From an uncultured Pseudomonadales bacterium (GTDB lineage: Bacteria > Pseudomonadota > Gammaproteobacteria > Pseudomonadales > Azotimanducaceae), in contig CAJJAX010000036.1 of NCBI GenBank assembly GCA_905182155.1, positions 2,782-66,781 of the forward strand: DNA of 64,000 nt. The letters are read 5' to 3'. The notes beneath the pieces are model-generated. The model saw only the letters and a program-made list of their open reading frames with translations, was not told the origin of the DNA and ran no database searches. Position numbers and translations under genes: made by a program. Each line of letters begins with the position of its first letter. Position 1 is the first letter of the stretch. Positions 12,126-64,000 of the stretch are shown here, in pieces.

Positions 12126-13796
12126 ATGAGCGGCCCGACCAAAAGACCCTATTCTTCTCAAGTTGTCGATGGGCTCGAAAAAGCCGCGGCCAGGGCAATG
12201 CTTCACGCCGTTGGCTTCTCAGAAGCAGATTTTTCAAAGCCGCAAGTCGGAATCGCCTCGACCTGGAGCAATCTTACGCCCTGCAATGTTCATATTAATG
12301 AACTCGCCGAAGCCGCCGCCATCGGCGTCGAAGATGCCAATGCCAAAGCCATCACGTTTAATACCATAACGGTCAGCGACGGCATCTCGATGGGCTCGCC
12401 CGGGATGCGCTATTCCTTAGTTTCAAGAGAAGTGATTGCCGACTCCATTGAAACCGTGGTCGCGGGGCAAGGGTTTGATGGGTTCGTCGCCATTGGGGGC
12501 TGCGATAAAAACATGCCCGGTTGCGCCATCGCCATGGCCCGACTCGACAGACCCAGCGTCTTTGTCTATGGCGGCACCATTCAGCCGGGCAAAGACCGAC
12601 GAGATGTGATCTCCGTATTCGAGGCTGTCGGCCAATACGCCAGTGGCAATCTGTCGGAGCTCGCCCTGAAAGATATCGAGGCGACCTCAATCCCGGGCCC
12701 TGGCTCTTGTGGCGGCATGTATACCGCCAATACCATGGCCTCAGCCATCGAGGCACTCGGCTTGTCCTTGCCTAATTCGTCAGCGCAAGAAGCGATTTCT
12801 CCTCAAAAACGTCAAGACTGTCTGGCGGCGGGCGAGGCCGTTGTTAAGCTGATTCAGGCCGACATCAAGCCCAGCGACATTCTTTGCCGCGAGGCCTTCG
12901 AAAATGCCATCACGGTGACGATTGCGCTTGAGGGCTCAACCAACGCGGTCCTGCATCTGCTGGCGATCGCGCATGCGGCCAATGTGCCGCTGTCCATTGA
13001 CGACTTCACCGCCATTGGTAAACGGGTGCCTGTCCTCGCCGATATGCGACCCGCTGGGCTGTATTCTATGAGCGAACTCATTGCCATCGGCGGCATTCAA
13101 CCCCTCATGAAGACCCTCCTCGAGGCTGGCTTATTACACGGCGACTGCCTGACTGTCACGGGTAAAACCTTGGCTGAAAACTTAGCGGAGGTTGCGCCCT
13201 ATCCAGCAGAGCAGAGTATTATCAGACCGCTTTCCAATCCGATTAAGAAAGACAGCCATTTGGTCATCCTCAAAGGCAATGTTGCGCCCGGCGGCGCGGT
13301 TGCAAAAATCACCGGCCATGAAGGCTTAAAGTTCGCGGGCAGTGCTCGCTGTTTTCATGGCGAGGAAGCCGCCTTGGCGGCAATTCTGGACGGCACGGTC
13401 GAATCCGGCGATGTGGTGGTGATTCGATATGAAGGCCCGAAAGGCGGCCCAGGCATGCGCGAAATGCTCAGCCCAACCAGCGCTATCAATGGCCGCGGAT
13501 TATCCCAGGATGTCGCCCTACTCACCGACGGGCGTTTCTCGGGGGGAAGCCATGGTTTCGTGGTGGGGCATATTACTCCGGAGGCCTTTGACGGTGGACC
13601 CATCGCGCTTTTAAAAGACGGCGATCAGATTGAAATCGATGCCGATGCCAATGAGATGAACGTCTTGATCAGTGATGCCGAACTGGCCGAGCGGCGAGCG
13701 CAGTGGCAAGCGCCAAAACCCTATACTGAGCGCGGCGTTCTGGCGAAATATGCAAAACTTGTCAGTTCCGCATCGACAGGCGCGGTCACCGACTAA
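12126..13796 (+). CDS. ilvD: Dihydroxy-acid dehydratase (IlvD/Edd family, short form)
   Basis: Motifs [22 protein letters not shown] and [18 protein letters not shown]. Start set at ATG 12126, preceded by AGGAAA at 12113-12118. The track start at 12096 is a TTG. Confidence 0.85.
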
Positions 13797-16010: not shown

Positions 16011-17050
16011 TTTAGAACGCCCAAGGACCGGCTCATCTCGATGCTGCGTTTTGCCATGACCATAAACATTTCATTGCCGCGCTCAGTTTCACCCACAATC
16101 ATCGAAGCAATCAGCGCCATAATCATGCCCGCCGGGGCGTAGTTACGATAATAGGCAAACGCAGTGTCAAATTTCAGATCAACGCGGTAGCTTTTTAGGA
16201 CTTCCAAGTAATGCCGAATCAACGCCGCCTCGTCCTGATCTCGATCGTGGCCCAGGAGCGACGTTCCCATAAAATAGCTCACATCGTTTAGCGGACAGCC
16301 CATCGTTAACGACTGCCAATCAACGACTGTGAGCGGATAGGGCCCGCCAAACATCATGTTATCCAAACGATAATCAACATGAATCAGAACAGGAGGGTTA
16401 TTGCCGTACAACGCTTGATAAGTTGGAATTAACTCGAGCAGTTGTTCCGTGGCGGTAATCTCAACATCCGTTAATTGCGCTCCGTATCGATCGAGATAGC
16501 CCGGCATCAAACCTTTGTATAACTCGGTAATGATTGCGGTATCTTGCCGATCGGTCGAACCCAACAACAAATCATGCTTGGCCAAGGCCTCATCCCCCCA
16601 CTTTGGGCCCTGCAAATGCGCCAGCTGTTCAAGCGCCAGCGCCGCTTGATCCACGCTACAACCCTGCAATTGATCCCCCTGAACGCCGGGCGCTAAGTCT
16701 TCCATCAGCAAGACAAATTCATGCGATTCCGGGTCAATATCGGCATGGTAGATAATGGGGGTCTGGATGTTCACAGACGACTGCAAGCTTTGGTAAAAAA
16801 ACACTTCCCGAACATAATTGCGCTGCAGGATTCCGGTTTGCTTACTAACCGGATCCAGAGACGGAAACTTACCCACGACTGAGGCCGGCACACCCGTTCC
16901 GGTCAAGGAAAAGCGAACGTTCTCGCCAACCTGACCGGTCCCAATCGATTCTCCCTGCAGGCCCGTCACCACGCAGCCAGGGCAACGGACTTGCAGAGCC
17001 GCGGTCATCCAAGCGGGATCGATCTGCTCAGGGTTTGATCGAATATCCAT
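16007..17050 (-). CDS. APH/ecdysteroid-kinase-like phosphotransferase family protein
   Basis: 347-aa ORF with the catalytic-loop-like LIHVDYRLDNMMF followed by VVDWQS. This arrangement is typical of the phosphotransferases found beside acyl-CoA dehydrogenase genes. Confidence 0.7.
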   Translation of the reverse strand: MDIRSNPEQIDPAWMTAALQVRCPGCVVTGLQGESIGTGQVGENVRFSLTGTGVPASVVGKFPSLDPVSKQTGILQRNYVREVFFYQSLQSSVNIQTPIIYHADIDPESHEFVLLMEDLAPGVQGDQLQGCSVDQAALALEQLAHLQGPKWGDEALAKHDLLLGSTDRQDTAIITELYKGLMPGYLDRYGAQLTDVEITATEQLLELIPTYQALYGNNPPVLIHVDYRLDNMMFGGPYPLTVVDWQSLTMGCPLNDVSYFMGTSLLGHDRDQDEAALIRHYLEVLKSYRVDLKFDTAFAYYRNYAPAGMIMALIASMIVGETERGNEMFMVMAKRSIEMSRSLGVLN

Positions 17051-20070: not shown

Positions 20071-21106
20071 TTACAGCATTTCCGAGGCAATCAGTTCCAG
20101 CGCTTCTGGCTGGCCTGCACCAATCAACATCGAGCCCACATCGCCGTTGAGACCGGCAGTTTTCCAGTGCTTTAACTGCTCTTTAATGTGCTCAGCTGGT
20201 CCAACAAGATGACAGGCATCAACCAACTCATCCGGCACCGCCGCCATCGCCTCATCCTTACGACCGGACAAATACAGATCCTGAATCGTCGCCGCCGCAT
20301 CTTCATAGCCCAAGGCCTTGGTGTAATCATTATAAAAGTTCTTATCACGAGCCCCCATGCCACCAATATAAAGCGCCATATTGCCCTTAATCGGCATTCT
20401 GCAAGCCTCAATGTCATCACCCATAATACAAGTCACGAACGGCGCCACATCATAATCCAGCATCGTGCGACCCGATTTGGTTAAGACCTTTTTCGATATG
20501 ACCTCGGAGGGCGCCTGGATTAGCGGGGTTCATCCAGATGGGGAAGACGCCATCGGCCACTTCTGCGCTGCCAGCAAGACCATTGGGCGTAATCGAGGCC
20601 GTATAAATCGGAATCGAGGTGTCCGCTTGTAAAATGCTCTTCAAGGATTTGCCAAGGCCGGTGCCATCCTCGCCAGTGTAGGGCAAGCTGTAATGAAACC
20701 CTTCGTGTTCAACCGGTCCCTCACGGGCAAAGATTTTTTTCATGATACTGACATATTCCTTCACCCGGGTGACGGGTCGACCATAGGCCACGCCGTGCCA
20801 TCCCTCGACCACTTGGGGGCCCGATGCGCCAAGCCCAACCATAAACCGGCCGTTAGACAATTGATTCAGCGTCATCGCGGTCATCGCAGTACAAGCCGGC
20901 GAGCGCGCGGGCATTTGCATGATGGCGGTCCCAACCTTGATTTTATCCGTCTGCGCCAGGATCCAAGCAGCCGGTGTGACCGCGTCAGAACCATAGGCTT
21001 CAGCGGTCCAAAGCGAGTCGTAACCCATACTTTCCGCCATCTTGATGCGTTGAATGTCGATGTTCAGTACTTTGCCGCCGTATCCGGCCAGTATTCCTAG
21101 TTTCAT
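20071..21106 (-). pseudogene. LLM-class (probably F420-dependent) oxidoreductase split by a single-base frameshift near 20455-20490
   Basis: The track ORFs 20450..21106 (MKLGILAGY...MAESMGYDSLWTAEAYGSD...FPIWMNPANPGALRGHIEKGL) and 20071..20463 (MLDYDVAPFV...YIGGMGARDKNFYNDY...) are the N and C halves of one roughly 345-aa LLM protein. The other frame across the junction reads TKSGRTMLDYDV with no stop. Confidence 0.75.
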
Positions 21107-41384: not shown

Positions 41385-42925
41385 CTACTGCGGTGCTGGC
41401 CCTGGATAGGATTCCCGGAGCACGCGTTTGAGCACTTTGCCATTGGCATTCCTTGGGATCACATCCGTAAAGGCCAAGCCTCTCGGCAATTTAAAGCGAG
41501 CCAACTTACCATCGCAAAAACTCAAGATCGCGTCAGCTGCTACATCGGATGACTTTGGCACAACGATCGCAAAAGGGCTCTCGCCCCACTTCTGACTGGG
41601 CTGGCCAATCACCGCCACCTCGATGACGTCAGGATGACTCAGAATCACGTTCTCAATTTCAGCCGGATAAACATTTTCGCCACCAGTGATAATCATGTCT
41701 TTGATTCATTTGACTGTCAAAGCCTTCTTCATCAATTGAAAAGCCTCTTTCCGGTCCACAACCAACCATCTTGAGTAATGGTGTCGGCTGTGGCTTCGGG
41801 CCGATGCCAATACTCAAGCATGATGTGGCCACCCTTTACCCAAACTTCCCCCTGCAGGCCGGGATCACAGTCAGCGCCCGCATCATCGACAACCCGCACC
41901 TCGGTATGAAAAAAAGCTTTCCCGGTTGAACCAATCTTTTGCAGCGCATTCTCGGCGCTGATTACACAAGCAGGCCCACAGGTTTCCGTTAGACCGTAGA
42001 TCTGATGGATTTCGATCCCCAATTTTGAATATTGTTCAATCAAGCTCACAGGCAGTGGCGACGCGCCGCTTTGGATCCATCTAAGGTGATCGAATGTAAA
42101 CTGTTCCCGTGGGACCTGTATCATGAAATTGAGCATGGCGGGCACTAACAAAGACACCCCAATCGCCTCATCTCGAATCAACTTCCAGGCTGACACCGGG
42201 TCGAACTCACGCATCACGACGCTGGTCACACCACGATAAATATTCAAAGCAACAGGCGTTAGCGCGCCAACATGAAACAATGGCAGTGCCACCAAGTAGC
42301 GATCCCCGTCACGCAGATCGCAACTGGCCTCAAAGGTCAGCAGCGCCCAAAAAGACGTTGTATGAGAATGCACCACACCCTTAGGTAGCCCTGTGGTGCC
42401 TGAGGTGTACATGATGTAAAGCAGGTCATCCCCACTCGCAGTCACCACCGGTTCAACCACATTCCCTTGGGCGCAAAACTGAGCATAATCCGTTGCAAAG
42501 GCGAGGCAATCGCCAACGCTTGCGACTTCAAGCCAGTGCTGCACGTCGGTCTGATCACCGCGTCCATGTAAGTCCGCAATGACCGTTTGGAATTCTTCGC
42601 CATAGATCAGCGTTTTTGCACCGCTGTCCTTGATAATAAACTCAAGCTCATCCGCAACGAGACGCCAATTCAGCGGCACCACAACCCCGCCAATCTTCGC
42701 GACCGCGATAAAAGCCTCGATAAACTCGGCACTATTCATCAAACACAGCGCGACCCGATCACCTTGTTCAACGCCCAGTCCACGAAGCTGATGACTGAGC
42801 CGATTAGCGCGCTGATTGAGTTCCAAGAAGGATAGCCTGGCGCCGGTCGCGGCATCGACATACGCCTCTCGATGAGGGCTAATGTCCGCACGGCGGGTGA
42901 GAAAGGATCCGATATTCACATTCAT
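41385..42925 (-). pseudogene. AMP-dependent acyl-CoA synthetase disrupted by two or more frameshifts and an in-frame TGA within 41706-41760
   Basis: The N-terminal ORF (41732..42925) has YIMYTSGTTGLPKG and ends ...QDGWLWTGKRLFN*. The C-terminal ORF (41385..41696) starts MIITGGENVYPAEIE. Between them the three frames read in turn GWLWTG, then RGFSIDEEGF, then LTVK-TGA-IKDMIITGG. The TGA is at 41706-41708. Confidence 0.8.
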
Positions 42926-49710: not shown

Positions 49711-51127
49711 TCAATCGCGCTCGAGACGCAGCGTGTTTTTGATACTGGGCAGTTGATCTCGATGATCATGACTGACATAGAGCACCGTGGTTTCGCGGCC
49801 CTGTATTAACTTTTCGATCAGGGCGAGGACCAACCCTCGATTAAAAGCGTCCAGCCCCAAGCATGGTTCGTCGAGTATCAGCAGTGCTGGCTGCTTGACC
49901 AGCGCGCGCGCAATTAAAAGCAACCGCTGATTGCCAAAACTTTGCTGGGTAAAGGGTTGCTGCCGGGCCCCGGTTAAACCGATTAACGCAAGCCATGAAG
50001 CCGCCGCTGACTTTTGCGCCGCAGTGGGGCGTTGGTAAACGCCAACGCTATCAAAGAATCCAGAGATAATGACGCTCTCAACGGTCCCGCTGACGCGATA
50101 CGCTAAATGTAATTCAGAGGAAACAAACCCGATGTACTGCTTGATCTGCCAAATACTTTCACCACTGCCCCGCTTGAAGCCAAATACTTCCAAATCATTG
50201 GTGTAGCAATGCGGACTATCGCCCGTAATCAGGCTGAGCAAGGTGGTCTTACCTGAGCCATTCGCGCCAGAGACTTGCCAGTGCACACCGGGATCAATGC
50301 GCCAATTGAGACCATCAAAGATGACCCGATCTTCAAAGCGGACGCGGATATCGCGCATCTCAACCAGTGCTCGCTCAGCGGAAAGCCCTGGCACCGAACT
50401 GGGCAAGGGGGCTGGCAAAGCTTGCGCTTCATTGGTTAAAACAACCATTTGACCAAGCCAAGATCTCGCCGCCGTCGGATCCATGGGACCTTGATAATCA
50501 ATGCGTCCGCCTGATAAGTACGCGACATGATCAATCCAGTCAGGCAATGCAGCCCAATCGTTTAGTACCAGGAGCACCGTTTTACCGCCGACAAAATCCG
50601 CAAGACTGTCCATGGCCACCTCGCGACTGCCATCATCAAGGCCCGCTAAGGGTTCATCTAATATAAGCAGGCTAGGCTTTGACATTAAAGCCATCGCAAT
50701 AGGCACCAGCTGGCCCGCGTTCGGCCCCGTGCTGACGAAACCGCTGGCCCAACAAAGGCTGGAGTTGAAAGCGGCGGATGAGTTCGGTCAAAACTTTGTC
50801 GACGGGATTGAGTTCACTTAGAATGTCGGCGACCGACGAGCCTTTAAATTTATCATCAGCACCGTCATATTGATGCCGCTCACGGTCTATAAGCGCTAGG
50901 TGTGCCGCCGCTGACACCACAACCGCATTTTGGGGAATTCCGCGCGCCTGCCCTGACTGAATCCGGCCGCCGCCTTCAATAAGCCCGAGCAAGACCGATT
51001 TCCCTGAACCGTTGCGACCCGCTATAAACCATTTCTGGCCGCTTTCAATCTGCCAGCTGATTGGCCCCAGGGTGCCCGTTTCAGAAAATCTGAAGGTCGC
51101 TTGATCGAGCGTCACAAGCGGGCTCAT
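49711..51127 (-). pseudogene. modF: ModF-like tandem ABC ATPase, frame broken at about 50705-50750
   Basis: The N-terminal ORF has Walker A GRNGSGKS and ends ...LLGQRFRQHGAERGPAGAYCDGFNVKA*. The other frame continues QLVPIAMALMSKPSLLILDEP (Walker B). A second ATPase domain follows (GANGSGKTTLLSLITGD...LLILDEPCLGLD). Colinear with E. coli ModF as I recall it. Confidence 0.75.
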
Positions 51128-51169
51128 ACCGACCTCGCCCAGCTGGATGAATCATCCACAACGGGCTCT

Positions 51170-52643
51170 TTACACGATGGCTTTCATCGCTGTCATGTAA
51201 CCCCGAAGCGTTTGCCCAATGGCTTCCACGGGATGACTGCGGATTTCTTGGTTTACGGCAATCAGAACCTGGTTATCAACCCCTACATCATTCAAACCCA
51301 AGCCCCGACCAATCACATCAGTCTCGAGCGGCGCGATAAACTCCGCCAGTAAAGGCAAACAAGCGTGGTTGTATAAATAACAGCCGTACTCGGCAGTGTC
51401 TGAAATCGTACTGTTCATTTCGAAAAGCTTTTTGCGCGCAATGGTATTTGCAATCAGCGGAACCTCATGCAGGCTTTCGTAATAGGCAGATTCTGCTTTA
51501 ATGCCCGCGGCCGTCATGGTCTCGAAAGCCAGCTCAACCCCAGCCTTAACCATGGCGATCATCAAAATACCTTGGTCAAAGTAGGTTTGCTCACCGATGT
51601 CAGCATCGGTCACAGCGGTTGTTTCAAATGCGCTCTGGCTGGTTTCATGGCGCCAGCCTAAAAGTTTGGCATCGTCATCCTGCCAATCCGCCATCATGCC
51701 GCCGCTAAAGGTCCCGGTCATGATGTCATCCATATGTTTTTCATACAGCGGACGCATGATCTGCTTCATCTCATCGGAAAGATCAAACGCGCGCAGCTTC
51801 GCCGGATTGGAGAGCCGGTCCATCATGTTGGTAATCCCACCATGCTTAAGCGCCTCGGTGATGGTCTCCCAACCGTACTGGACCAACTTTGCCGCATAGG
51901 CCGCATCGACGCCTTTATCAACCATCTTATCGAAGCAGAGCAGTGAGCCCGTTTGAAGCATTCCACAAAGGATGGTCTGCTCGCCCATGAGATCAGATTT
52001 TACTTCGGCAACGAAAGAGCTCATCAAGACACCGGCCCGATGGCCACCTGTGCCGGCAGCATAGGCCTTGGCAATGGCAAGGCCTTCCCCTCGCGGGTCA
52101 TTATCAGCATGAACCGCAATTAAAGTTGGTACACCAAAGCCTCGCTTATATTCTTCGCGGACCTCCGTGCCGGGACACTTAGGCGCCACCATCACAACGG
52201 TTAGATCTGCCCGTATCTTTTGACCTTCTTCAACAATATTGAAACCATGAGAGTAGGCGAGGCAAGCGCCGTGCTTCATCAGAGGCATGACCTGCTCGAC
52301 AACCTGCGTATGCTGCTTGTCGGGTGTCAGGTTAAGCACTAAATCAGCTGTCGGAATGAGTTCCTCGTAGGTGCCAACGGTGAAAGCCATTGCCGTCTGC
52401 ATTCAGGAAAGACTGACGCTTTTCGTCGATCGCGGATTGCCGCAAGGTATAAGCGACATCAAGCCCGCTGTCCCGAAGGTTTAGCCCTTGGTTTAAGCCT
52501 TGGGAGCCACAACCGACCACCACGATCTTCTTGCCACGTAGATAATCAACGCCGCCTTCGAACTCGGAGGCGTTCATGAACTCGCACTGACCTAATTGCG
52601 CCAATTGCGCTCGCAAAGACAGAGAATTGAAATAATTGGCCAC
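51170..52643 (-). pseudogene. ilvC: Ketol-acid reductoisomerase (class II IlvC) with a 1-nt insertion in a T-run (A3 at 52383-52385 on the plus strand)
   Basis: [23 protein letters not shown]...[23 protein letters not shown]...NADGNGF shifts frame and continues [24 protein letters not shown]...[29 protein letters not shown]. This is near-identical in layout to E. coli IlvC. The sequence ggc-ttt-c-acc-gtt would read GFTVG with one T fewer. Confidence 0.9.
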
Positions 52644-52884
52644 GTCGCGCCCCTTGGAAAAAAAGAGGCCTAACTCTAAGGGAAAACCGCCTGAAAATAA
52701 ATTACTTCATCGACTTTGTTCGACCGCAATGACGGTCTTCGGAGGCGAGTTAGCCGTTAACAGCACGCTAAACCGGCGCCATTTGATCAATTCAGCCCGC
52801 CAGCGAGCCTAAACCGCACCCAATCAAACTGATGAGGTCCACTACATGGCAATCGCGACACACCAAACGACGGGGCCTTCACGC

Positions 52885-53727
52885 TCATTGATAGGCCTGC
52901 AGCGGACCACCTTCAATGGTGATTCGATGCATGCGCCGAGACTGACCTTGGTAGTCATTCTGAGCAAAATGCCAAGTGGCCCGGTTATCCCAAAAAGCAA
53001 TCGTCCCCGGTTGCCAATCAACCCGTTCGACTTGGTCGTCCGCCACCGCCGACTGGTAAAGATCGTTCAACAAGGGCGCTGACTCCTCCTGAGTCCAGCC
53101 CTCAAACCTAAGCGTAAAGCCTGGGTTCACATATAGGACAGGACGACCGCTCAAGGGGTGCCGCACGACAACGGGATGAATCGGGTCCGGCAAAGCATCG
53201 GCTAGATCCGGCCGGCCCATCCTCGCCTGACTAATATTCTTTTGCATGTACTCGGATTGGTTACCAAAAACATGCTTCGCAGAATGCACCGCATTCAGGG
53301 TCAACAGTACCGTTTTCAACCCATCAGACAATTGATCGAAGGCGCGATACATACTGGCGAACCACGTGTCCCCGCCAGTTTCCGGCAGCACTCGCGCGAC
53401 CAAGATCGAGCCCAGAGCGGGAATCTGATCATAGGAGTGATCGGTATGCCAACCACCGCCGATGTTCTCCTGTTGATCCGGTTCTTTTTCAACCATCGCG
53501 ATTTGTGGGTAATCCGAATGGGCTTTGAAAAATCGATTGGTATTAACCTGCCCCCAACGCTCAGCGAGCGCCAAGTGGTCCGTCTCTGCCAGGTCCTGAC
53601 CTCTGAAAATCAGCAAGCCATGCTGCGCAAAAGCTGTTTTGAGTTGCACGTCCTGCCCATCCGTCAGGGTCTTCACATCCACCTCGGTGACTTCTGCCCC
53701 GACCGCATTCAACGGCGTAATTTTCAT
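52885..53727 (-). CDS. TauD/TfdA-family Fe(II)/2-oxoglutarate dioxygenase
   Basis: 280-aa ORF with GGGWHTDHSY (HxD iron ligands) and the C-terminal WDNRATWH. Confidence 0.85.
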   Translation of the reverse strand: MKITPLNAVGAEVTEVDVKTLTDGQDVQLKTAFAQHGLLIFRGQDLAETDHLALAERWGQVNTNRFFKAHSDYPQIAMVEKEPDQQENIGGGWHTDHSYDQIPALGSILVARVLPETGGDTWFASMYRAFDQLSDGLKTVLLTLNAVHSAKHVFGNQSEYMQKNISQARMGRPDLADALPDPIHPVVVRHPLSGRPVLYVNPGFTLRFEGWTQEESAPLLNDLYQSAVADDQVERVDWQPGTIAFWDNRATWHFAQNDYQGQSRRMHRITIEGGPLQAYQ

Positions 53728-53942
53728 GAACCTTGCTCCCTTTTGTTCTCATCAACCCGTCGTCAGGGGTCACGCCTTATCATGACGATACTCGAAACCT
53801 TGATCAATCGCTTCATGACGACCCTTGAACTCTAATCTCGGGCGCGCAATGCCCGCTCGCGTTTCATCAAACGCGGCGCGTGCGCCTGATGCGCATAATC
53901 CAACAGGGCTTAAGCCGGTAAGGTTATCCAAATCATGTCTGG

Positions 53943-54722
53943 TTATGACTCAATCCCATCAGCGCCCTGATCGAGACCATTGCCGCGGATCATTTGCTGA
54001 ATCTCATCGACATAGTCCTGCCCTCGTTCGGAATACCGCAGCAAACCATCTGCGACCGCCTCGCCGGTAATCGGTTTGTTGGCAGTCCGAAGATCAGTTC
54101 GGCGTTGACGGAGCAACGCATAGGCCGGGTGACTATTTAAGGTCAGCAGGTAGTAGGCGACACCCGCCTGAACCGATGCAAAAGCCGCAACTTGATGCGT
54201 TGATTCAGCGCTGGCTCGTCGGGGCTTCACACCGCACCCTTTGGTAAAGCACCAAAGGCCAAAAAAATTTCGATGGTCTTGGGCGAACCGAGACGTCCCC
54301 CAGGCGGATTCATTCGCTGCTTGCGCCAGCGCCAACCCTTCGGGCACCTCATCGACGCGCATCAGTAAATCGTTCAGCACCGCACGATCAGATAACGTCT
54401 CCCGATTGGGAACCCGATACTTCTTAGCCAGGCGCCGAATATCCAGGGCATCATCGCCTGAATCAATGCCAGCAGCCTGAGCACGGGCCTTGATCAACTC
54501 GAGCATCTGACGCTCCGCCCGGATATTGCCATTTTCGATGCGGACCCTGGGCCTGACAAAATCGAAAAACGCCTGTTTTTTCTCAGCAACCTCTTTATAG
54601 GCGCTAAAATCAGGAACGGCTTCCGGCGGCGTGGGTTGAAGCCAGAAAATCGCAATCACCCCAAAGAAGACCAATAAGGCGCCGAACACCCATTGGCGCT
54701 TGAGACCAAAGGCAACCTTCAT
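53943..54722 (-). CDS. Bax-like glucosaminidase-domain protein (membrane anchored)
   Basis: 259-aa ORF with an N-terminal TM helix and ALAQAANESAWGTSRFAQDHRNFFGLWCF, the glucosaminidase motif shared with E. coli Bax and FlgJ-type enzymes. Confidence 0.7.
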   Translation of the reverse strand: MKVAFGLKRQWVFGALLVFFGVIAIFWLQPTPPEAVPDFSAYKEVAEKKQAFFDFVRPRVRIENGNIRAERQMLELIKARAQAAGIDSGDDALDIRRLAKKYRVPNRETLSDRAVLNDLLMRVDEVPEGLALAQAANESAWGTSRFAQDHRNFFGLWCFTKGCGVKPRRASAESTHQVAAFASVQAGVAYYLLTLNSHPAYALLRQRRTDLRTANKPITGEAVADGLLRYSERGQDYVDEIQQMIRGNGLDQGADGIES

Positions 54723-56170
54723 CGCGGCTGACCCGAGTCAAACCGTTCTTTTAATAATCGTTTGATTTCTTGGTGCCGGCGCTCATCGATTTGATAACCT
54801 AAGTACATCAGCACGCCGAGTACCGTAAACACCGAGGTGGCGGGCCCCGCGATAAACCCAAGCAGCCAAACCGTGTCGGCTGGGACCGAGCCCATCAAAG
54901 CCCCCCGAGGGAATTGAATCAAATCCAGTAGCGTTCCACCAAAAACCAACCCCATCGAACTGGTTGCCTTGACCGCAAAGGAACGCGCCGAGAAAATCAC
55001 CCCTTCCCGGCGAAAACCGGTGTCCAGTTCGTGTTCATCCGCAATATCAGCAAACATCGAATTCAGGGTTGCGAAGATGATCGGCGCGAGGGACGCGGTA
55101 ACCAAACCGCTCAAAATTAAAACCGCCAGTAAACTTTGACTGCCCTGTGCCGGAAACCATGAGACGCCTGAAAGCGACAGCACAATCGGGATATTAATGT
55201 TCACAATAACCAATAAGGCCGAAACAATTAGCGTGCGTTTTTTATCGAGCCATCGCGTCATCATTGGCAAGAAGGATAACGACAGAAACAAACCGAAAAG
55301 CTGTGCCAATGGAATCCAGCGTAACTGCTCGGTGGTTAATCCCCAAAAGTGGAAACCCATAAAAGGATTAAACACCCCTTCAACCGACAGGACCAACGTG
55401 CTCAGCATCATGCCAAAAAAGATGGCTCGAAATGATCGGTTATTAAAGGCGTCTCGAAACTCTCCAATCAAATCAGCTAACCGCATCAATTGACGCGGGT
55501 CCTGATCGACGTGACGAACCAACCTGGGAATCTCGCGACGGGTGCCGACCACGCAGACAATAATGGCAAAAATCATTAACCCAGCGGCCATTAAAGACCA
55601 GGGCTGATACGCAGCTTTATTGAGCAACCCCGGATTAAAGACTTCGGTGGTTGGGAAAAACAAGGTGTATGAGATCGGGACAAACAGCGCCCCACCCAGA
55701 AACCCGAAAAACGTACTCATTGCATACAATGTTGAGCGCTGGTGATAGTCCTCGGCCAACTCAGCGCCCAAGGCCAGGTGGGGGACGTGATAGAGCGTCA
55801 AAGAGGCTCTCACCAAAACCGCAAAAACCAGCAGCCAAAGAAAGTGCGCCCAATCGGAGGCCATGCCAGGTGGATTAAACAGGCAATAAAAACTCACGCC
55901 AAGCGGCAGCGCTGCCATCAGAATCAACGGATGTCGCCTGCCAAACCGGGTCCGTAACTTGTCCGAAAATGACCCAATCAACGGATCTGAAACCGCATCA
56001 AACATCAGCGCTATCGCCAGCGCAATGGAGGTTAGCGTTGCCGAGACGCCGAGCACTTGATTGTAATAAAACAATAAAAAGACATTAAACCCAGCGTTTT
56101 TAATGGCCTCAGCAAACTGCCCGAAACCAAAACTAAACATGACCGGGAATTTTAATCGATGGATCGTCAT
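54719..56170 (-). CDS. GPH-family (glycoside-pentoside-hexuronide type) MFS symporter
   Basis: 483-aa ORF with FYYNQVLGVSATLTSIALAIALMFDAVSDPLIGSFSDKLRTRFGRRHP, the GPH signature region. Its stop overlaps the Bax-like ATG (ATGA). Confidence 0.75.
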   Translation of the reverse strand: MTIHRLKFPVMFSFGFGQFAEAIKNAGFNVFLLFYYNQVLGVSATLTSIALAIALMFDAVSDPLIGSFSDKLRTRFGRRHPLILMAALPLGVSFYCLFNPPGMASDWAHFLWLLVFAVLVRASLTLYHVPHLALGAELAEDYHQRSTLYAMSTFFGFLGGALFVPISYTLFFPTTEVFNPGLLNKAAYQPWSLMAAGLMIFAIIVCVVGTRREIPRLVRHVDQDPRQLMRLADLIGEFRDAFNNRSFRAIFFGMMLSTLVLSVEGVFNPFMGFHFWGLTTEQLRWIPLAQLFGLFLSLSFLPMMTRWLDKKRTLIVSALLVIVNINIPIVLSLSGVSWFPAQGSQSLLAVLILSGLVTASLAPIIFATLNSMFADIADEHELDTGFRREGVIFSARSFAVKATSSMGLVFGGTLLDLIQFPRGALMGSVPADTVWLLGFIAGPATSVFTVLGVLMYLGYQIDERRHQEIKRLLKERFDSGQPR

Positions 56171-56483
56171 TGACTACCAAATTAAGCAAAGACCGCACAG
56201 TCTCTGACAATTTTCTTGTCAGCACAACGTCAATGACGTGCCACAGCGCAGACGCTGCTTTGTGATGCCCTCGCAGCTTAAGCGCCTCGCCGGTGCGTGG
56301 CACCGCAACCTCCAAATTACGGCCGCGTTCGAACCGGTTCAGCGGTTCAGGAATCCCGCACTTGGGTTAGAGGCACCTAGGATCAGCGGTTGTGATCCCG
56401 CGCCAACCTACCCCTCACGCCGCGCAATCAACCTGGTCGTCCAGCCATTCATACCGGTTTCGTCGTTCTTCGAGGGTTTTCGA

Positions 56484-57824
56484 TCAGGTTGCCAGGCCCG
56501 AGATCAGAATCACCAGAATGACGCACGGTAAAGGATATTTGAGCAACCCATACCAAAGCCGGAACTGCCAAGCCCGTGGAAAGACCACCTCCGCAGCAAG
56601 CTGATCTCGCTTTAAAACCCAACCCGCGAAGACAGCAATCAGCAAACCCCCGACCGGCAATAACAATTGATTGGAGATAAAGTCGGTCAGTCCATTTAAA
56701 TCAAATCCGAGGATTTGAAGCGTGGACCAAGTGCTGTAGGTCAAGATGCTCACCAGAGACACCAGCATTAAAGACAGGATCATAAGCCAGGTGCTTTTGA
56801 TTCGACTGATGCCAGTGACCCGAGCAAGGGTTGCGACTAAGGGTTCCACAAACCCCACCATCGAGGTCATCGCCGCAACCGACAAAAGCAAGAAAAACAG
56901 GCCACCCACCAGCGCGCCCAAGGGCAGTTGTCCAAAGGCAATGGGCAGCACTTTAAAGATGAGGCCAACACCACCGGCCGGGTCTAGACCGTAGCGAAAC
57001 ACCAACGGAAAAATCATCAACCCTGCTAAGAGGGCAATGGCGGTATCCGCAATGATAATCAAGACCCCGTACCGCACAATCGACTGCCCTGGCGGCAAGT
57101 AGGCGCCAAAAATCATTAACCCAGCCATGGCAACCCCAATTGAAAAGAAGGCTTGCCCGATTGCCGCTAAAAACACCTGGGGGGTAATCTTCGAAAAATC
57201 TGCTTGAAACAGATAGTCCCAACCCACCCAAAAGCTCGGATGAAACGCGTTATACGTTACAAGCCCAATCATGAGCACAAACAACAACGGCATGAGCACC
57301 CGCACGGCGCGTTCGATGCCTTTTTGAACGCCCCCAGCGATGATGACGCCGGTCAGCGTCATCGCAACCGTCATCCATAAAAACATGACCATGGGGCTTG
57401 CCAAAAGGGTCGAGAAATACTGATTGGATGCGGCCTGATCGATCGAGGCGAAAGCGCCGCTTGAAACCGACCAAAGATAGTAAAGCACCCAGCCTGCAAC
57501 GGTTGCATAGGTCGCCATAATTAGAAATGCCGTGAGCAGATTCAACCCACCCACCCAGCGCCAAAGCGAGGCGGCATCGGAAGCTCTTGCAAGACGGCCG
57601 AAGGTCTGGATCGGGTCGCCCTGACCCCGTCGACCGAGCGCAATCTCAGCCATCACAATCGGTAGCCCAATGATGAGCACACAGCCCAGATACACCAGTA
57701 CAAACGCCGCGCCGCCGTTTTCGCCAGTGATATAAGGGAAGCGCCAGATATTGCCCAACCCAACGGCAAACCCCACGGCGGCCATTAAAAAACCAAAGGG
57801 CGTTTTAAACGTTTCTTGTTTGAT
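56484..57824 (-). CDS. Sodium-dependent SNF/NSS-family transporter; start codon uncertain
   Basis: AVGLGNIWRFPY is the NSS TM1 signature. The track ORF starts at ATG 57785, in the middle of TM1. The frame is open upstream (IKQETFKTPFGFL-M...) back to an ATC at 57824, which sits 8 nt after AAGGA. There is no ATG, GTG or TTG in that extension. Confidence 0.8.
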   Translation of the reverse strand: MKQETFKTPFGFLMAAVGFAVGLGNIWRFPYITGENGGAAFVLVYLGCVLIIGLPIVMAEIALGRRGQGDPIQTFGRLARASDAASLWRWVGGLNLLTAFLIMATYATVAGWVLYYLWSVSSGAFASIDQAASNQYFSTLLASPMVMFLWMTVAMTLTGVIIAGGVQKGIERAVRVLMPLLFVLMIGLVTYNAFHPSFWVGWDYLFQADFSKITPQVFLAAIGQAFFSIGVAMAGLMIFGAYLPPGQSIVRYGVLIIIADTAIALLAGLMIFPLVFRYGLDPAGGVGLIFKVLPIAFGQLPLGALVGGLFFLLLSVAAMTSMVGFVEPLVATLARVTGISRIKSTWLMILSLMLVSLVSILTYSTWSTLQILGFDLNGLTDFISNQLLLPVGGLLIAVFAGWVLKRDQLAAEVVFPRAWQFRLWYGLLKYPLPCVILVILISGLAT

Positions 57825-58660
57825 AAGCCTTATCCTTACTAATTAATTCAGCGCCGTCTATTTTGTAATTTCCCGTGTTCGTTTTGATGCAGACCGCCAT
57901 CCCTTAGAAAAACCAGACCTCATCGGCAGCCGGGGTGCTTTTTACAGGGCGCCCGGCGTTCAAGGCGCGTTGTCGACGCATTGCGCGCGCCTGCACCCAA
58001 AAAATCTTTCGAGGCAACCATCGTACAAGTAAGCGCCCCGGTAAACAAAGAGGCAAGACCCTGAATCCTGTTGCCATCTGAAAACCCAACGGAACGCCCG
58101 AGACGCGTCAATGCTGGGTAGCCGCCTTGAAATCCCCAGCACCCGGCCCAATCCTTTCGTCAAAGCGGCATGACTTTGTTACAAGGACTGCTCAACACCT
58201 TGGTAATCTTCCTGTCTCGACTTGCGGGATTCTACGTCGACAAGGTTGTTCTCAAAAATCAGCGGAGCTTGGGCATCGATTATGTCATCACCTGAATTCT
58301 TGCTTAGATTTTCCGGTTGTACCTTGCAATCCTCATCGCCCTTTGATTTTCACGGCGACGAGCATTCCGCGCCGATGAAGGCGGGGCCCATTTAGCCGGT
58401 AAGCAAAAAAGGATCAACGCCTTGAAGAAACGTCAACAGGTTAGCGAGCCGCAAGATTTACCGAGCGCATTTGCAGCGTTTGGGATCTCGGGGTCCAGGG
58501 GGGGTATTAGTCAATTGTTTTGCAGTCACCCGCCACTCGAGCACCGCCTCAAATCTTTACAATAAGCCCAGATTCTCTAAAGGAATCCTGTATTGAGCCA
58601 AGGCCCGGAGTTCGATAGGGTATCCAAACTTAAAACCTAACCATCAAAGAGCCTTTCCCT

Positions 58661-59818
58661 ATGCCTGAAGCCAGCGACATTACCGATATCCGTCACGCCG
58701 TCCGGCAACTGTGTGCGAAATTTGGGGAGTCCTATTGGCTCGAACTCGATCGAGACAGAGGCTATCCCACAGAATTTGTTCAAGCCCTTACCGACAGCGG
58801 CTTCCTGACCGTTTTGATTCCCGAAGTGTACGGCGGCTCTGGTCTTGGGGTCTTTGAGGCCGCCATCATCATGGAAGAAGTCTGCCGCTCCGGCGCCCAT
58901 GCTGGCGCCTGTCATGCGCAGATGTACGTCATGGGCTCGGTGTTACGGCACGGTAGCGATGCTCAAAAACAGCATTATTTGCCCAAAATTGCCGCCGGCG
59001 AACTGCGGCTTCAAAGCTTCGGGGTGACTGAACCCACAACCGGCACCGATACCACCAGCCTTAAAACCACAGCGCGACTGGATGGGGATCACTATGTCGT
59101 GAATGGCCAAAAGGTGTGGATCAGCAGAATAGAGCATTCAGATTTAATGGTGCTACTGGCGCGCACGACCCCAAAGGAAGAGACCAATAAGAAAACTGAA
59201 GGTTTGTCGGCCTTCATCGTTGATGTCGGCAAAGCCGTCGGCAATGGACTCGAGATCAGGCCTATTGATTCCATGATCAATCACCACTCGTGCGAATTGT
59301 TTTTCGACGATTTGAAGATTCCTCGTGAAAACCTCCTGGGCGTTGAAGGACAAGGCTTTAAAGTTATTTTAGATGGCATGAACGCAGAGCGAATTCTGAT
59401 CGCCGCTGAATGCGTCGGCGATGGCCGTTACTTCATCGACAAGGCCAGCCGGTACGCTACCGACCGGATCGTCTTCGACCGTCCGATCGGTCAAAATCAA
59501 GGGGTGCAGTTTCCCATTGCGAGATGCTATGCAGAAGTCGAAGCCGCGTGGTTAATGGTCGAAAAAGCGGCTCACCTATTTGATGCAGGCGACGCTTGTG
59601 GCGCCGAAGCCAACATGGCGAAAATGTTGGCCTCCGAAGCCTCCTGGCGTGCGGGCGACGTGTGTATGCAGACCCATGGCGGCTTTGCATTTGCCAAGGA
59701 ATATCATATTGAACGCAAGTTTCGGGAAACTCGTCTTTATCAAATCGCGCCCATCTCAACCAATTTGATTTTGAGTTTCATCGGCGAACATGTCCTTAAA
59801 ATGCCGCGGTCTTTTTAG
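58661..59818 (+). CDS. Acyl-CoA dehydrogenase
   Basis: 385-aa ORF with FGVTEPTTGTDTTS and the C-terminal FRETRLYQIAPISTNLILSFIGEHVL. Confidence 0.9.
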   Translation: MPEASDITDIRHAVRQLCAKFGESYWLELDRDRGYPTEFVQALTDSGFLTVLIPEVYGGSGLGVFEAAIIMEEVCRSGAHAGACHAQMYVMGSVLRHGSDAQKQHYLPKIAAGELRLQSFGVTEPTTGTDTTSLKTTARLDGDHYVVNGQKVWISRIEHSDLMVLLARTTPKEETNKKTEGLSAFIVDVGKAVGNGLEIRPIDSMINHHSCELFFDDLKIPRENLLGVEGQGFKVILDGMNAERILIAAECVGDGRYFIDKASRYATDRIVFDRPIGQNQGVQFPIARCYAEVEAAWLMVEKAAHLFDAGDACGAEANMAKMLASEASWRAGDVCMQTHGGFAFAKEYHIERKFRETRLYQIAPISTNLILSFIGEHVLKMPRSF

Positions 59819-59821
59819 GGC

Positions 59822-60637
59822 TTATCCGTTGGGATTTGGCGTGAACGCATCACCCACCTGAATCCGACCGGTGTCCCGTGGCGCAATATAGGTGCCAAAC
59901 ATCACGCCGCCGGCATACCCGTTATCTCGTCGTCGATAGCGGCTCAGCGTTCGCAGCGGTTCTTTGCTGGCGGTCTCGGAAGCTTGATCAAAGGTCGTCA
60001 CCGCGCAGCGCTCACAGGCCGTAACTTGTTCAAAGGACAGCTCGCCAAGGGTAAGCACCGCAATATCATCTTCGGCGTATGGATCAAGCCCCGAGACGAC
60101 GATATTCGCTCGAAATCGATCCATCGGTATGGGGGCTTCCAGGCGCTGGTTTAAATCATCGAGCGACGCTTGATTGGCTAAAAGCAACGGCGCGACATCC
60201 ACGGTTTTTGACTGCACCGTGCCTTCGAGGCGCGCAAAAACCGGCAGCGGAATCGATATGGCCTCGCCCGATGCCGCTTTCACCAAGCGCAACGGTTTGC
60301 CGAAAACCTCAGTGAGCCACAGCGCAACCGGTTCACCAAGATCGATCACGGCCACTGTTCTACCGATCAACGGCATCGGCTCGGATTGCGGACATTCCTC
60401 AAACGGTACTCGAAAGGAGTCGCCGCCTTTGAACGACAAGGTCAGCTCCCCCGCTTGCCAAATAGCTGACAGATCTTTGAGCGCCGGCAGACTTTTTTGG
60501 CTTTGCGGTTGCCCGGCGTCGGTTACAACAAATTGTCGATCGCCCTCAAAACCCTCTGTGGTAACATCAGCCGCTTCAAGGGTTTGACCCCGACACCCCT
60601 TGATCGGGTAAATCCATAAACTGTCAACGCGCATCAC
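59822..60637 (-). CDS. MOSC-domain protein (MOSC_N beta-barrel plus MOSC; YcbX-like)
   Basis: 271-aa ORF starting MRVDSLWIYPIKGCRGQ, with RFRANIVV and a conserved Cys in VTACERCAVT. Confidence 0.8.
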   Translation of the reverse strand: MMRVDSLWIYPIKGCRGQTLEAADVTTEGFEGDRQFVVTDAGQPQSQKSLPALKDLSAIWQAGELTLSFKGGDSFRVPFEECPQSEPMPLIGRTVAVIDLGEPVALWLTEVFGKPLRLVKAASGEAISIPLPVFARLEGTVQSKTVDVAPLLLANQASLDDLNQRLEAPIPMDRFRANIVVSGLDPYAEDDIAVLTLGELSFEQVTACERCAVTTFDQASETASKEPLRTLSRYRRRDNGYAGGVMFGTYIAPRDTGRIQVGDAFTPNPNG

Positions 60638-60681
60638 TTGCCTCCCATGAGCCTATTCACCAATCGATAAGATAGTCCACC

Positions 60682-61449
60682 ATGAGCCAGACCGCCACGA
60701 ATAATACCAGCGTCACCATCTTGGAACGATTTCGTGGCCCCCCAACCTCAGGACATGGCGGTTACGTCAGTGGTCGATTTGCAGCGTTTGGCGATCTTGC
60801 CCCGAGCGAAAGTGCTGAAGTGACCCTGCGCTCCCCCATTCCACTTGATCAATCGATGTCGGCGCTTTTCGAGGCCGACAATCCGCGTACTTGCCGGATT
60901 CAGGACCAGGATACCCTGATTGCTGAAGTGCGGGGCGTGATGCTCGACTTAGACGTCCCGGCGCCACCCGACTGGTCTGAAACCCTCGCAGCCGCGCCGC
61001 GATCAGCCGCGCTGATGCCCAACATCAACCCGCTCTTGCCTGGCCAGCAAGGTTTTCATCCGATCTGTTTTTGTTGTGGCCCCGAGCATCCTGAAGGACT
61101 GAGAATTTTCGTCGCCCCGGTAGATCGTCAAGTTTCTGGGATCTGGGAAACCCAGGCCCATTGGGGGGATGCCGCAGGGAACCTACCGCACGCGTTCATC
61201 TGGACCGCGCTCGATTGCCCTGGGCAGTATGCCTTTCTGGCGGAAGGTATTCGCACCGGTCTGCTGGGCCGCATGACGGCCAAAGTACTCACAGCCCCAA
61301 GGGCCGGCGCCCGGCTACAAGTGACCGCCTGGACCATTGAGGTTTCCGGCAAAAAGCACCTAGCAGGTTCTGCTCTATTCGATGAACGGCAAACCCTTTT
61401 GGCCTATGCCACAACCCTTTGGATTGGCAGACAACCCTTAACGCTCTAG
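60682..61449 (+). CDS. Hypothetical protein, possibly hotdog-fold thioesterase-like
   Basis: 255-aa ORF. FHPICFCCGPEHPEGLRIF resembles the CF.CG..NP.GL motif of some PaaI-like hotdog proteins. The rest is unassigned. Confidence 0.4.
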   Translation: MSQTATNNTSVTILERFRGPPTSGHGGYVSGRFAAFGDLAPSESAEVTLRSPIPLDQSMSALFEADNPRTCRIQDQDTLIAEVRGVMLDLDVPAPPDWSETLAAAPRSAALMPNINPLLPGQQGFHPICFCCGPEHPEGLRIFVAPVDRQVSGIWETQAHWGDAAGNLPHAFIWTALDCPGQYAFLAEGIRTGLLGRMTAKVLTAPRAGARLQVTAWTIEVSGKKHLAGSALFDERQTLLAYATTLWIGRQPLTL

Positions 61450-61465
61450 ACAATCCCAGGATCCG

Positions 61466-62080
61466 CTAAGCCAACTGCATCGCACGCCAAGCCGTTTGAC
61501 CCATCGAGACCGCCGAACGGGTAAAGAGTGCGAGTAACAGCACGGCCACAATCAGGTCCGGATAGGCCGATCCCGTCCAGTAGACTAAGACAGCCGTCAC
61601 AATCACCCCAAAGCCCTCGAACACATCATTTCGGGAGCACTCCCAGACTGACGCCATATTGACGTCGTCTAAGCGATGCGGCGTCAGAAGCATCAGACAG
61701 ACCCCGTTCGCCAGAAAGTTTAAGACCGCGGCAAGGCCCATTGTTGCAACGATTGGCGTCTCTGGGCTCAACCCCTTCATCACCAATTGCATTAAAACGG
61801 CAACCGCCGCGACGCCAATCAAAACACTTTTAAAGAGTGCCGCCTTCGCTTTGACTTGCACGCTCGCGCCGACAACCGCAAAACTCACCATATAGGCTAA
61901 TGCATCACCGAAGTTATCGAGGGTGCCAGAAAGCAGCGCGGATGATCCGCTCATCACGGATCCAGCAACCATCATGAGAAACGTCGCGATATTGATCAGC
62001 ATCACCCAGATTAAGACTCGACGCTGCCGAGCGTGCAAACCGCTGACCTCTAGCAACTCATCACAGCAACCCTGACTCAT
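61466..62080 (-). CDS. Cation diffusion facilitator (CDF) family transporter, membrane domain only
   Basis: 204-aa ORF with six hydrophobic segments. LSGTLDNFGDALAY contains the CDF TM2 metal-site Asp pair pattern. Confidence 0.65.
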   Translation of the reverse strand: MSQGCCDELLEVSGLHARQRRVLIWVMLINIATFLMMVAGSVMSGSSALLSGTLDNFGDALAYMVSFAVVGASVQVKAKAALFKSVLIGVAAVAVLMQLVMKGLSPETPIVATMGLAAVLNFLANGVCLMLLTPHRLDDVNMASVWECSRNDVFEGFGVIVTAVLVYWTGSAYPDLIVAVLLLALFTRSAVSMGQTAWRAMQLA

Positions 62081-62210
62081 TGAGGCGCCCTCATCATTGA
62101 ACCCGTTCGGACTTTTATCATATCAAGAACCCAGACCGCCCGCGTGGTTGTATCCCCATCTGAATTCAGCTACAAAGAAATGCTATCGACTGAAGATCTA
62201 GGAAAAAACG

Positions 62211-62466
62211 TTGAAAACCTTACGAAAATCCATCACCCCAGAGGCCAATGACACTTGGGAATCGATTGCCGAGCAGCATCTGCCTTTGCTTGATCACGAA
62301 CAAGCCGTGGCCCAACTCCAAAGCTGGAAACCTGCATATTTTTGCTCGCCGGACCATTAATCAAGGTAAGAATGACGCCGGCACGCAGCCCTCGAACCCG
62401 ATTCTACCGAGTGACATCCTCTTTTTAGAATCACCCCAAACCCAACACGCGGAAGCCTTAAGTTGA
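62211..62466 (+). pseudogene. Small LysM/tail-protein-X-like ORF, frame broken by an extra A in the run at 62328-62330
   Basis: TTG 62211 (after AGGAAA) gives MKTLRKSITPEANDTWESIAEQHLPLLDHEQAVAQLQSW. The +1 frame then continues NLHIFARRTINQGKNDAGTQPSNPILPSDILFLESPQ... The ..DTW.SIA......N...........lP pattern is LysM-like. Low confidence that this is a real gene. Confidence 0.3.
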
Positions 62467-62690
62467 GCGCGACCATCTCAAGGGTAAGCCTAGGCGCCGC
62501 GCACGAAGGTCATGCTGAATTGCTCGTCACCCTTTCTTATGATGATGGTGGTCAGTCGCAAATCCCGCTGGACCCGAAAACTTGTGATCTGCTAATGACG
62601 CGTTGTGCGGCAGCATCGATCGATGATCTCGTGGGTCAAGACTGGACGCACATTCGCGATGCCTTAACCGAATCCTTTAACGGCGCTTAA
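62463..62690 (+). CDS. Hypothetical small protein (75 aa)
   Basis: The TTG start overlaps the preceding stop (TTGA). Composition looks protein-like and it sits 41 nt upstream of the amidohydrolase gene. No recognisable motif. Confidence 0.35.
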
Positions 62691-62731
62691 ACTGCCAAGA
62701 AGCTCAAAAGAACAACCCCAGGAGTAATACA

Positions 62732-63880
62732 ATGGACTTAATCATACGAAATGGCACGATTGCCGATGGTTCAGGAAACCCGTTATTTTCAGCCGACATC
62801 GGTATCACAGGCGATCGGATTGAAGCGATCGGTGTGATTACACAGCAAGCTCAGCAAGAAATTGATGCCTCAGGCAAAATCGTCAGCCCAGGGTTTATTG
62901 ATCCCCATACCCATTTTGACGCTCAACTCCTTTGGGATGGCGCCGCAAAACCCGCCATTGAACATGGCGTCACGACCATTGTTCCGGGCAATTGCTCCTT
63001 GTCTTTGGCGCCGCTCAAGGCCGAACATCGGATGAAGCTCGTTGGCATGTTCAACCAAATTGAAGAAATGCCGCACAAAGCTTTTTCCGAGGGTGTGACT
63101 TGGGATTGGGAAACCTTTGAAGAGTTTGTGACGCGTATTAAGAAAGACCTGACCATTAACGTCGCGCCATTAGTCGGCCACAGTGTCTTACGCCTGTGGG
63201 TCATGGGTAACGAATCGATGCATCGCACGGCCACAGCGCAAGAGACTCAAGCCATGCAAGCGCTTTTGAAAGAGTGCCTAGACGCAGGCGCGATCGGCCT
63301 TTCAACCAGCTTCATTGATATGGACGAAACACTTCAGCCAGTGCCGAGCCGCTATGCTGATGCGGCCGAACTTGATGCATTATGCGCTGTGTTGGGACAA
63401 CACAATCGCATACTGCAAGCCGTTCATGAATTTTACGATAACGATATCACCGTGGCGCGAATTGATCAGTTAGCTGACATTAGCCGCAAGCATCACATCA
63501 CAACGACGCTCTCGCCGCTTTTCCTGAATGCCGACAATGCCGATGGCGTCGCGGCCATTATGGCGCGGGTTGATGAACAGATGGCCCGCGGCGCGAAAGT
63601 CTGGCCACAGGTCCAAACCCGCCCAATCGACATCAGCTTCTCGTTTGAGGTTCCGAGTTTGTTATTCATGCGCCTGCCAACTTGGTACGGTCTCATCCGG
63701 TTTGGCACCAAGGCCGACATCCTCGCAGCCCTGCTTGATCCAACCCGCCGTGCCGCGCTGACGCAAGAAGCTCGGCCCATGATGCCGCTCTGGTCCGCTT
63801 TGGTCTTACGTCGTGTTCAGTCCGAAGCCAACGCCCAATTAATCGGTAAAACCCTCACTGAGATTGCCAGTGCCCGCAAG
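62732..63880 (+). CDS. N-acyl-D-amino-acid deacylase-like amidohydrolase (N-terminal ~380 aa; the native C-terminus is missing)
   Basis: Not in the ORF track because there is no stop before the window end. ATG 62732 follows AGGAG. Reads [17 protein letters not shown]...[19 protein letters not shown] (metal-binding HxH), then ...[11 protein letters not shown]...[27 protein letters not shown] translated it by hand with no stops. Confidence 0.8.
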
Positions 63881-64000
63881 CGTGGCATTCCGGTGGTGCG
63901 TCGCGCTGAAATGCTTGCTGAATTGATGCGGTATCGCCATGGTGTTGCCATCGCCGGCACGCATGGCAAAACCACCACTACCAGTTTGATTACCGCAATC
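63881..64000 (+). other. murC: Internal fragment of UDP-N-acetylmuramate--L-alanine ligase (MurC), in frame with the preceding amidohydrolase ORF
   Basis: [40 protein letters not shown] matches roughly residues 100-140 of MurC, including the Mur-ligase P-loop GTHGKTTT. No MurC N-terminal domain precedes it. Confidence 0.85.

Follow-up and report, generated by a model that had tools for sequence, protein, structure and literature searches.

K-mers shared between genomes are a documented cause of chimeric contigs in de Bruijn-graph assembly, as is the practice of feeding contigs from a small k, as pseudo-reads, into rounds with a larger k (PMC7299287). The two protein families that meet in the locus described here each have a well-defined reference. 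For the first, this is the D-aminoacylase of PDB entry 1M7J, which belongs with the Pfam family Amidohydro_3; for the second, it is MurC, the UDP-N-acetylmuramate--L-alanine ligase captured by the NCBIfam equivalog model TIGR01082, which also exists in nature as the bifunctional protein MurC-Ddl (NCBIfam NF011171). We analyzed a window of 64,000 nucleotides, meaning by this the whole stretch of DNA under study, that ends in an open reading frame combining the two families. The ORF (62732..64000, + strand) starts with an ATG at 62732, is still open at the window end at 64000 and encodes 423 residues, of which the first 382 correspond to a 551-residue N-acyl-D-amino-acid-deacylase-type amidohydrolase and the remainder, joined in frame, to MurC residues 96-136. 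Residues 1-226 match Amidohydro_3 (E 1.1e-15), and residues 369-423 match TIGR01082 at model positions 67-121 of 449 (E 1.5e-18, 67.1 bits), with the ATP-binding P-loop GTHGKTTTT present in the MurC part. The original prediction, which had pointed to an in-frame switch from an amidohydrolase into the middle of MurC, is borne out by these two matches, and a chance resemblance can be set aside. Its proviso that the last ~40 residues might turn out not to be MurC-like does not hold, as the 43-residue C-terminal tail matches TIGR01082 by itself (E 2.8e-17) and is identical at the nucleotide level to a true murC.

Neither family is represented by a complete member. Compared to the curated TIGR01082 cut-off of 335.1 bits, which requires a three-domain full-length match, the 67.1 bits of the ORF fall far short of MurC membership; its matches to Pfam Mur_ligase and Mur_ligase_M likewise score under the gathering thresholds. 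Although the remainder of MurC may follow past position 64000, the N-terminal domain is definitely missing. The bifunctional model NF011171 matches the ORF through the MurC portion only, with 35.6 bits against a cut-off of 1015. On the hydrolase side, a complete amidohydrolase fold comprises ~480-555 residues and includes a C-terminal segment aligning to 1M7J 314-478. The ORF exits the family after residue 382, and MurC sequence takes the place of the C-terminal block (residues 369-550) over which the intact protein aligns.

The amidohydrolase part of the ORF spans 62732..63877 (+), that is, 1146 nt or codons 1-382 of 551. Residues 1-380 are colinear with 551-residue proteins named N-acyl-D-amino-acid deacylase or amidohydrolase family protein, and the intact 551-residue orthologue matches the D-aminoacylase 1M7J with E 3.5e-47. 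Four contigs from four different samples (L081-L084), which we refer to as type A, align to window positions 50731-63877 with 98.1-98.6% nucleotide identity overall and are nearly identical to it outside a set of divergent patches. Beyond 63877 they diverge from the window, carrying the remaining 169 codons of the 551-residue amidohydrolase and then unrelated metabolic genes. The number of missing amidohydrolase residues, put at about 150-200 in the original prediction, is thus exactly 169 (551 minus 382). An exact-protein look-up with the 255-residue gene at 60682..61449 returned 383 blocks of the assembly collection, and in all 24 of the 24 long contigs that were read, the genes downstream of it are, in this order, a cation-efflux gene, a small ORF, the intact 551-residue amidohydrolase, DAO, FTHFS and formate-dehydrogenase. 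The thiolase gene at 7833-8999 led, by the same kind of look-up, to the same 493-kb type A scaffold, at the expected distance. Taken together with the alignment of L081-L084, this finding indicates a colinearity between the window and type A that begins close to the window start (7833) and extends to 63877. Among named genomes, MAGs of OM182, HTCC2089 and 'Candidatus Azotimanducaceae' come closest at the amidohydrolase locus.

Nearly clonal and very broadly distributed, the host population carries identical 255-residue and 388-residue proteins in 383 and 301 collection blocks, respectively, and these blocks span the ENA sample series TARA, PUEN22, HER19 and COLL22. Outside the patches, the window differs from L081-L084 and from the type A contigs L094-L096 by scattered single-base differences only. 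For the proteins of two ORFs, 41732..42925 (-) and 20450..21106 (-), the assembly collection contains no exact match, although their neighbours occur in hundreds of contigs; further patches, SNPs or another start-codon call could explain the missing records.

The other parent was retrieved by a metagenome scan using a 41-nt pattern (63860-63900) that lies wholly within the murC-homologous part of the window. The scan returned the murC contigs L085, L086 and L087, which match window positions 63857-64000 at 100%, 99.3% and 100%, respectively. In these contigs, the matching stretch represents codons 89-136 of a complete 486-residue MurC (TIGR01082, 566 bits; cut-off 335), so that the window holds a murC fragment (63857..64000, +) that runs off its end. 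In L085-L093, murC codons 1-88 and murG precede the matching stretch, and murC is flanked in the parent loci by murG, ddl, ftsQ, ftsA and ftsZ. The identical MurC protein occurs in 157 blocks, and each of the 24 long murC contigs read (24/24) carries the dcw cluster in the order rsmH-ftsL-ftsI-murE-murF-mraY-murD-ftsW-murG-murC-ddl-ftsQ-ftsA-ftsZ-lpxC and on through to secA. The nearest named MurC proteins are those of 'Porticoccaceae bacterium'. The murC contigs match the window at 63857-64000 only; no MurC N-terminus lies upstream of the junction, in agreement with what had been noted from the sequence. The two missing pieces, the aminoacylase C-terminus and the MurC N-terminus, were both found in intact parent contigs of other assemblies. 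Another MurC-like match, P0122 (NCBI, 3467-nt contig), was considered as a relevant hybrid and rejected: it is an E. coli-type MurC of 714 residues with an internal tandem duplication of ~230 residues, which probably reflects a separate artefact of assembly or annotation and has no connection with the junction.

Base-by-base alignment of the window with both parents resolved the anatomy of the join. Type A matches the window perfectly to 63877 and the murC contigs match it perfectly from 63857, leaving in the three-way alignment an overlap of exactly 21 nt (63857..63877, +), ACTGAGATTGCCAGTGCCCGC. Sequence found only in murC begins at 63878, close to the ~63881 that had been proposed as the start of the MurC segment. 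The shared 21-mer encodes TEIASAR, in the same frame and with the same codons in both genes, where it specifies amidohydrolase residues 376-382 and MurC residues 89-95. It is present in 4/4 type A loci and 9/9 murC loci, occurs in none of 86 other loci and is found once in the window; moreover, it is the only k-mer of at least 17 nt common to the 64-kb window and the 21-kb dcw locus. The sequence specific to the junction can be represented by the 45-mer GGTAAAACCCTCACTGAGATTGCCAGTGCCCGCAAGCGTGGCATT (63845-63889). The original proposal that a short microhomology seeded the join is therefore sustained by the 21-nt TEIASAR identity, but not in the form it had been given, an R-G-x-P string common to both families. 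No such string is present at the switch, where the intact amidohydrolase reads ...TEIASARDSNPLD and continues R-D-S-N-P, and the shared TEIASAR lies upstream of the place proposed.

The hybrid is in frame because both genes read the 21-mer in one and the same frame, and its in-frame state is not evidence of selection. Chance sharing of such sequences is not rare. For a 4-Mb genome compared with 1 Gb of community sequence, and assuming uniform base composition, 4e6 x 2e9 / 4^21 gives ~2000 shared 21-mers, a number that would be higher still given peptide motifs in common and similarities in codon usage.

We also compared the composition of the two sides. The window as a whole has a GC content of 0.53, and its 14-kb pieces, with GC of 0.51-0.55, show tetranucleotide correlations of 0.94-0.96 with the rest of the window. 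Type A loci (GC 0.53-0.55) correlate with the window at r 0.98 and loci of a sister species of type A (GC 0.52-0.54) at r 0.97, as compared to r 0.64-0.70 for the murC contigs (GC 0.50-0.51). Composition and the names of the best matches, both indirect measures, thus suggest that the sides of the junction derive from different organisms. For a join of two genomes, an intragenomic rearrangement is impossible, and a real join would need horizontal transfer. As a candidate for type A's own murC, we considered P0198, the entry with the most contigs (126, the longest of 527 kb) among the best 120 listed MurC matches. It was rejected, its loci being relatives of the murC donor (tetranucleotide r 0.91 to L088 vs 0.69 to type A).

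A natural counterpart of the hybrid did not emerge from our searches. When the 423-residue query was compared against 5.8 billion protein clusters, no amidohydrolase-MurC hybrid was found among the best 120 of the 8000 candidates scored; these 120 were ordinary 551-residue amidohydrolases, each covering 90-91% of the query. The junction was absent from the 48 long contigs read (24 type A and 24 murC). In addition, murC lay within 10 kb of the amidohydrolase in 0/80 related GTDB loci, and conserved synteny in relatives, which would have favoured a real fusion, was rejected on this basis.

The junction is accompanied by other foreign stretches in the same contig. Within the amidohydrolase part of the ORF, a block at 63100..63489 (+) is 100% identical to the orthologue in L009 (CAJJAA010000004.1, OM182 MAG FRAM18_bin281), which belongs to a different species, hereafter species B. 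Of the 367 positions from 63121 to 63487, 131 are different in type A. Judged by the positions that distinguish type A from L009, the window changes from A to B and back to A, with the switches located at 63099/63121 and 63487/63490. The entry into the species-B block, 757 nt upstream of the junction, coincides with an exact 21-nt run (63100-63120), the only 21-nt exact run between the two orthologues over the whole gene, the next longest being 17 nt. At 63488/63489 the window goes back from species B to type A over no more than 2 nt of shared sequence, while keeping exact register with the orthologue. A k-mer graph walk is insufficient to account for this return switch, so some other step must also be involved; length-constrained gap filling and polishing are possibilities.

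Further patches became apparent when the window was compared to type A contigs. Relative to L094-L096, the PEPCK gene shows 28 differences over 64 nt (7001-7064) and ilvD shows 41 differences over 117 nt (13467-13583), both patches being in frame with a third-codon-position bias, and a further short patch, also in frame, has 5 differences over 37 nt (16103-16139). In ilvC (KARI), which lies on the minus strand, a patch at 52259-52381 is ~35% divergent from type A, again in frame and with a third-codon-position bias, and carries at its end a 1-nt insertion (G, 52379). This G shifts the reading frame of ilvC, such that the window ORF (51170..52402) encodes 410 residues vs 490 in type A contigs. 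A second frameshift results from an extra A at 62328 (GGAAACC vs GGAACC in 4/4 type A contigs), which disrupts the frame of an 84-residue hypothetical gene (L081 11530-11784) and looks like a homopolymer-type error. The PEPCK, ilvD and ilvC patches were seen in no other type A contig compared, and exact-protein look-ups in the assembly collection gave no record for the 72-residue frameshifted ORF, the 410-residue ilvC product or the patched PEPCK. In sum, the patches and frameshifts together indicate that the contig is a mosaic consensus.

According to these data, the junction is very probably an inter-genome assembly chimera and no feature of any cell, a judgement drawn from the comparison of assembled contigs. 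Each side of the breakpoint matches a separate, independently assembled sequence that continues differently past it, and the breakpoint falls on a short exact repeat whose length, 21 nt, is roughly that of an assembler k-mer. The two sides also differ, by the indirect measures of GC, tetranucleotide correlation and best named matches, in the genome to which they belong. Both the murC junction and the entry into the species-B block fall at the sole exact identity of at least 21 nt that was available, as a fixed threshold of k=21 predicts. The default smallest k of MEGAHIT and SPAdes/metaSPAdes is 21. The original prediction had left a choice between a chimeric junction, a rearrangement and a misassembly; the last of these is supported by the intact parents, the single 21-mer overlap, the differing composition and the further foreign patches, each of them observed directly.

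From these observations we infer how the assembler made the join, that k was 21 and that both bacteria were present in the source sample; the sequence of events may have been as follows. The window would be part of a contig from type A, an abundant OM182/HTCC2089-like population of marine bacteria whose amidohydrolase gene is intact. By coincidence, the 21-nt string at 63857-63877 would also occur in the murC of another bacterium, presumably present in the same sample, and a de Bruijn graph built at k=21 would link the two genomes at the shared vertex. The assembler, or a contig-extension or gap-filling step, could then have walked from the amidohydrolase into murC, and the join would have been kept, probably because coverage of the true path was thin there.

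Of the other explanations, the one that survives best, though we regard it as improbable, is that the hybrid molecule or read arose during library preparation, when PCR template switching, ligation or multiple-displacement amplification linked the two genomes at the 21-nt identity, and that the assembler then reproduced it correctly; the join would again be an artefact, but one older than the assembly. The join does lie at a short exact identity, where template switching happens, and the visible murC tail, at only 144 nt, has about the length of one short read. Moreover, the in-register return at 63488/63489 with its 2 nt of identity would be easier to reach by a homology-guided or molecule-level process than in a k-mer graph. 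However, both resolvable entries are exactly 21 nt long, the longest identity available in each case, which indicates a fixed k, whereas annealing would accept a range of lengths. In addition, at least five patches in one contig could arise in this way only if many chimeric molecules had formed independently and each had prevailed over the correct reads.

A real rearrangement or horizontal transfer, with a foreign dcw piece inserted into the amidohydrolase by illegitimate or short-homology recombination, appears even less likely than a library artefact. A length of 21 nt is close to the minimum for RecA-dependent pairing, which would suit such an event, as would the preserved reading frame of the fusion, in which no stop codon occurs before the window end. 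In contrast, the amidohydrolase gene is intact in every type A contig read and the dcw cluster normal in every murC contig read (24/24 each), and the protein search described above yielded no hybrid among its best 120 of 8000 candidates. The product would be without MurC domain 1 (residues 1-88, including the GIGGSGM motif) and without the last 169 amidohydrolase residues, which align to the C-terminal region of 1M7J, so the earlier remark that a fusion would lack essential parts of both enzymes is correct. The donor segment is 100% identical in nucleotide sequence to the murC of a free-living population, with no divergence since any transfer, and the other foreign patches, one of them frameshifting the housekeeping gene ilvC, bear the signature of a poor consensus and not of repeated gene transfer. 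The common D-amino-acid and peptidoglycan chemistry of the two proteins, which had been put forward as a reason to keep a real fusion in play, carries little weight. The specific scenario in which an OM182-like cell acquired a Porticoccaceae-like dcw segment via the 21-nt microhomology, disrupting its amidohydrolase, is more doubtful again. If it were real, the hybrid ORF would encode ~773 residues, joining the truncated amidohydrolase to MurC residues 96-486 without the first MurC domain. The least credible of the alternatives, a pipeline concatenation that placed two separate contigs end to end with their boundary here, might appeal because no more than 123 nt separate the junction from the window end, but we rejected it, since simple concatenation would not merge the sequences through a single copy of their only shared 21-mer and would leave the internal species-B block unexplained.

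Understood as an assembly chimera, the feature is real in the sequence file, not biological, and it is an ordinary case of a kind already explained, the chimeric contig. Its biological significance is none, and its practical significance is one of quality control. The contig is unfit for annotating a hybrid amidohydrolase-MurC protein, and its last 123 nt should be trimmed. Because the contig contains several short imported stretches plus two frameshifts, gene-level inferences drawn from it, such as pseudogenes, recombination or horizontal transfer, are unsafe without read support. The locus also provides a worked example of how one chance 21-mer, shared in the same frame between unrelated genes, can yield a convincing 'in-frame fusion'.

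Compared to the known systems, the two parts of the ORF are each faithful to their family as far as they go. Like the D-aminoacylase 1M7J and its relatives in Amidohydro_3, window residues 1-382 constitute the N-terminal part of a 551-residue family member, but the window copy lacks the last 169 residues, a segment that aligns to 1M7J ~327-478 when the gene is intact. Likewise, the last 48 window codons are an exact nucleotide copy of murC codons 89-136, but in contrast to the MurC described by TIGR01082, the window has no N-terminal UDP-MurNAc-binding domain and places the fragment outside the dcw context. The natural bifunctional MurC-Ddl demonstrates that MurC can be part of a larger polypeptide. 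Whereas such natural fusions keep the whole of MurC and combine it with a pathway neighbour, the MurC described here is broken off within domain 1 and attached to an unrelated hydrolase that is itself incomplete. The inter-genomic chimeric contigs of de Bruijn-graph assembly (PMC7299287) differ from the present case in two respects: the join described here connects non-homologous genes of different families, not conserved orthologues, and of the three switch points resolved, the one at 63488/63489 involves no more than 2 shared nt. What the window has in common with them is that two genomes are linked via a shared k-mer, that each side is identical or nearly identical to an independent, intact sequence, that the 21-nt overlap has the length of the default smallest k, and that the same contig contains further switches between related populations in conserved genes.
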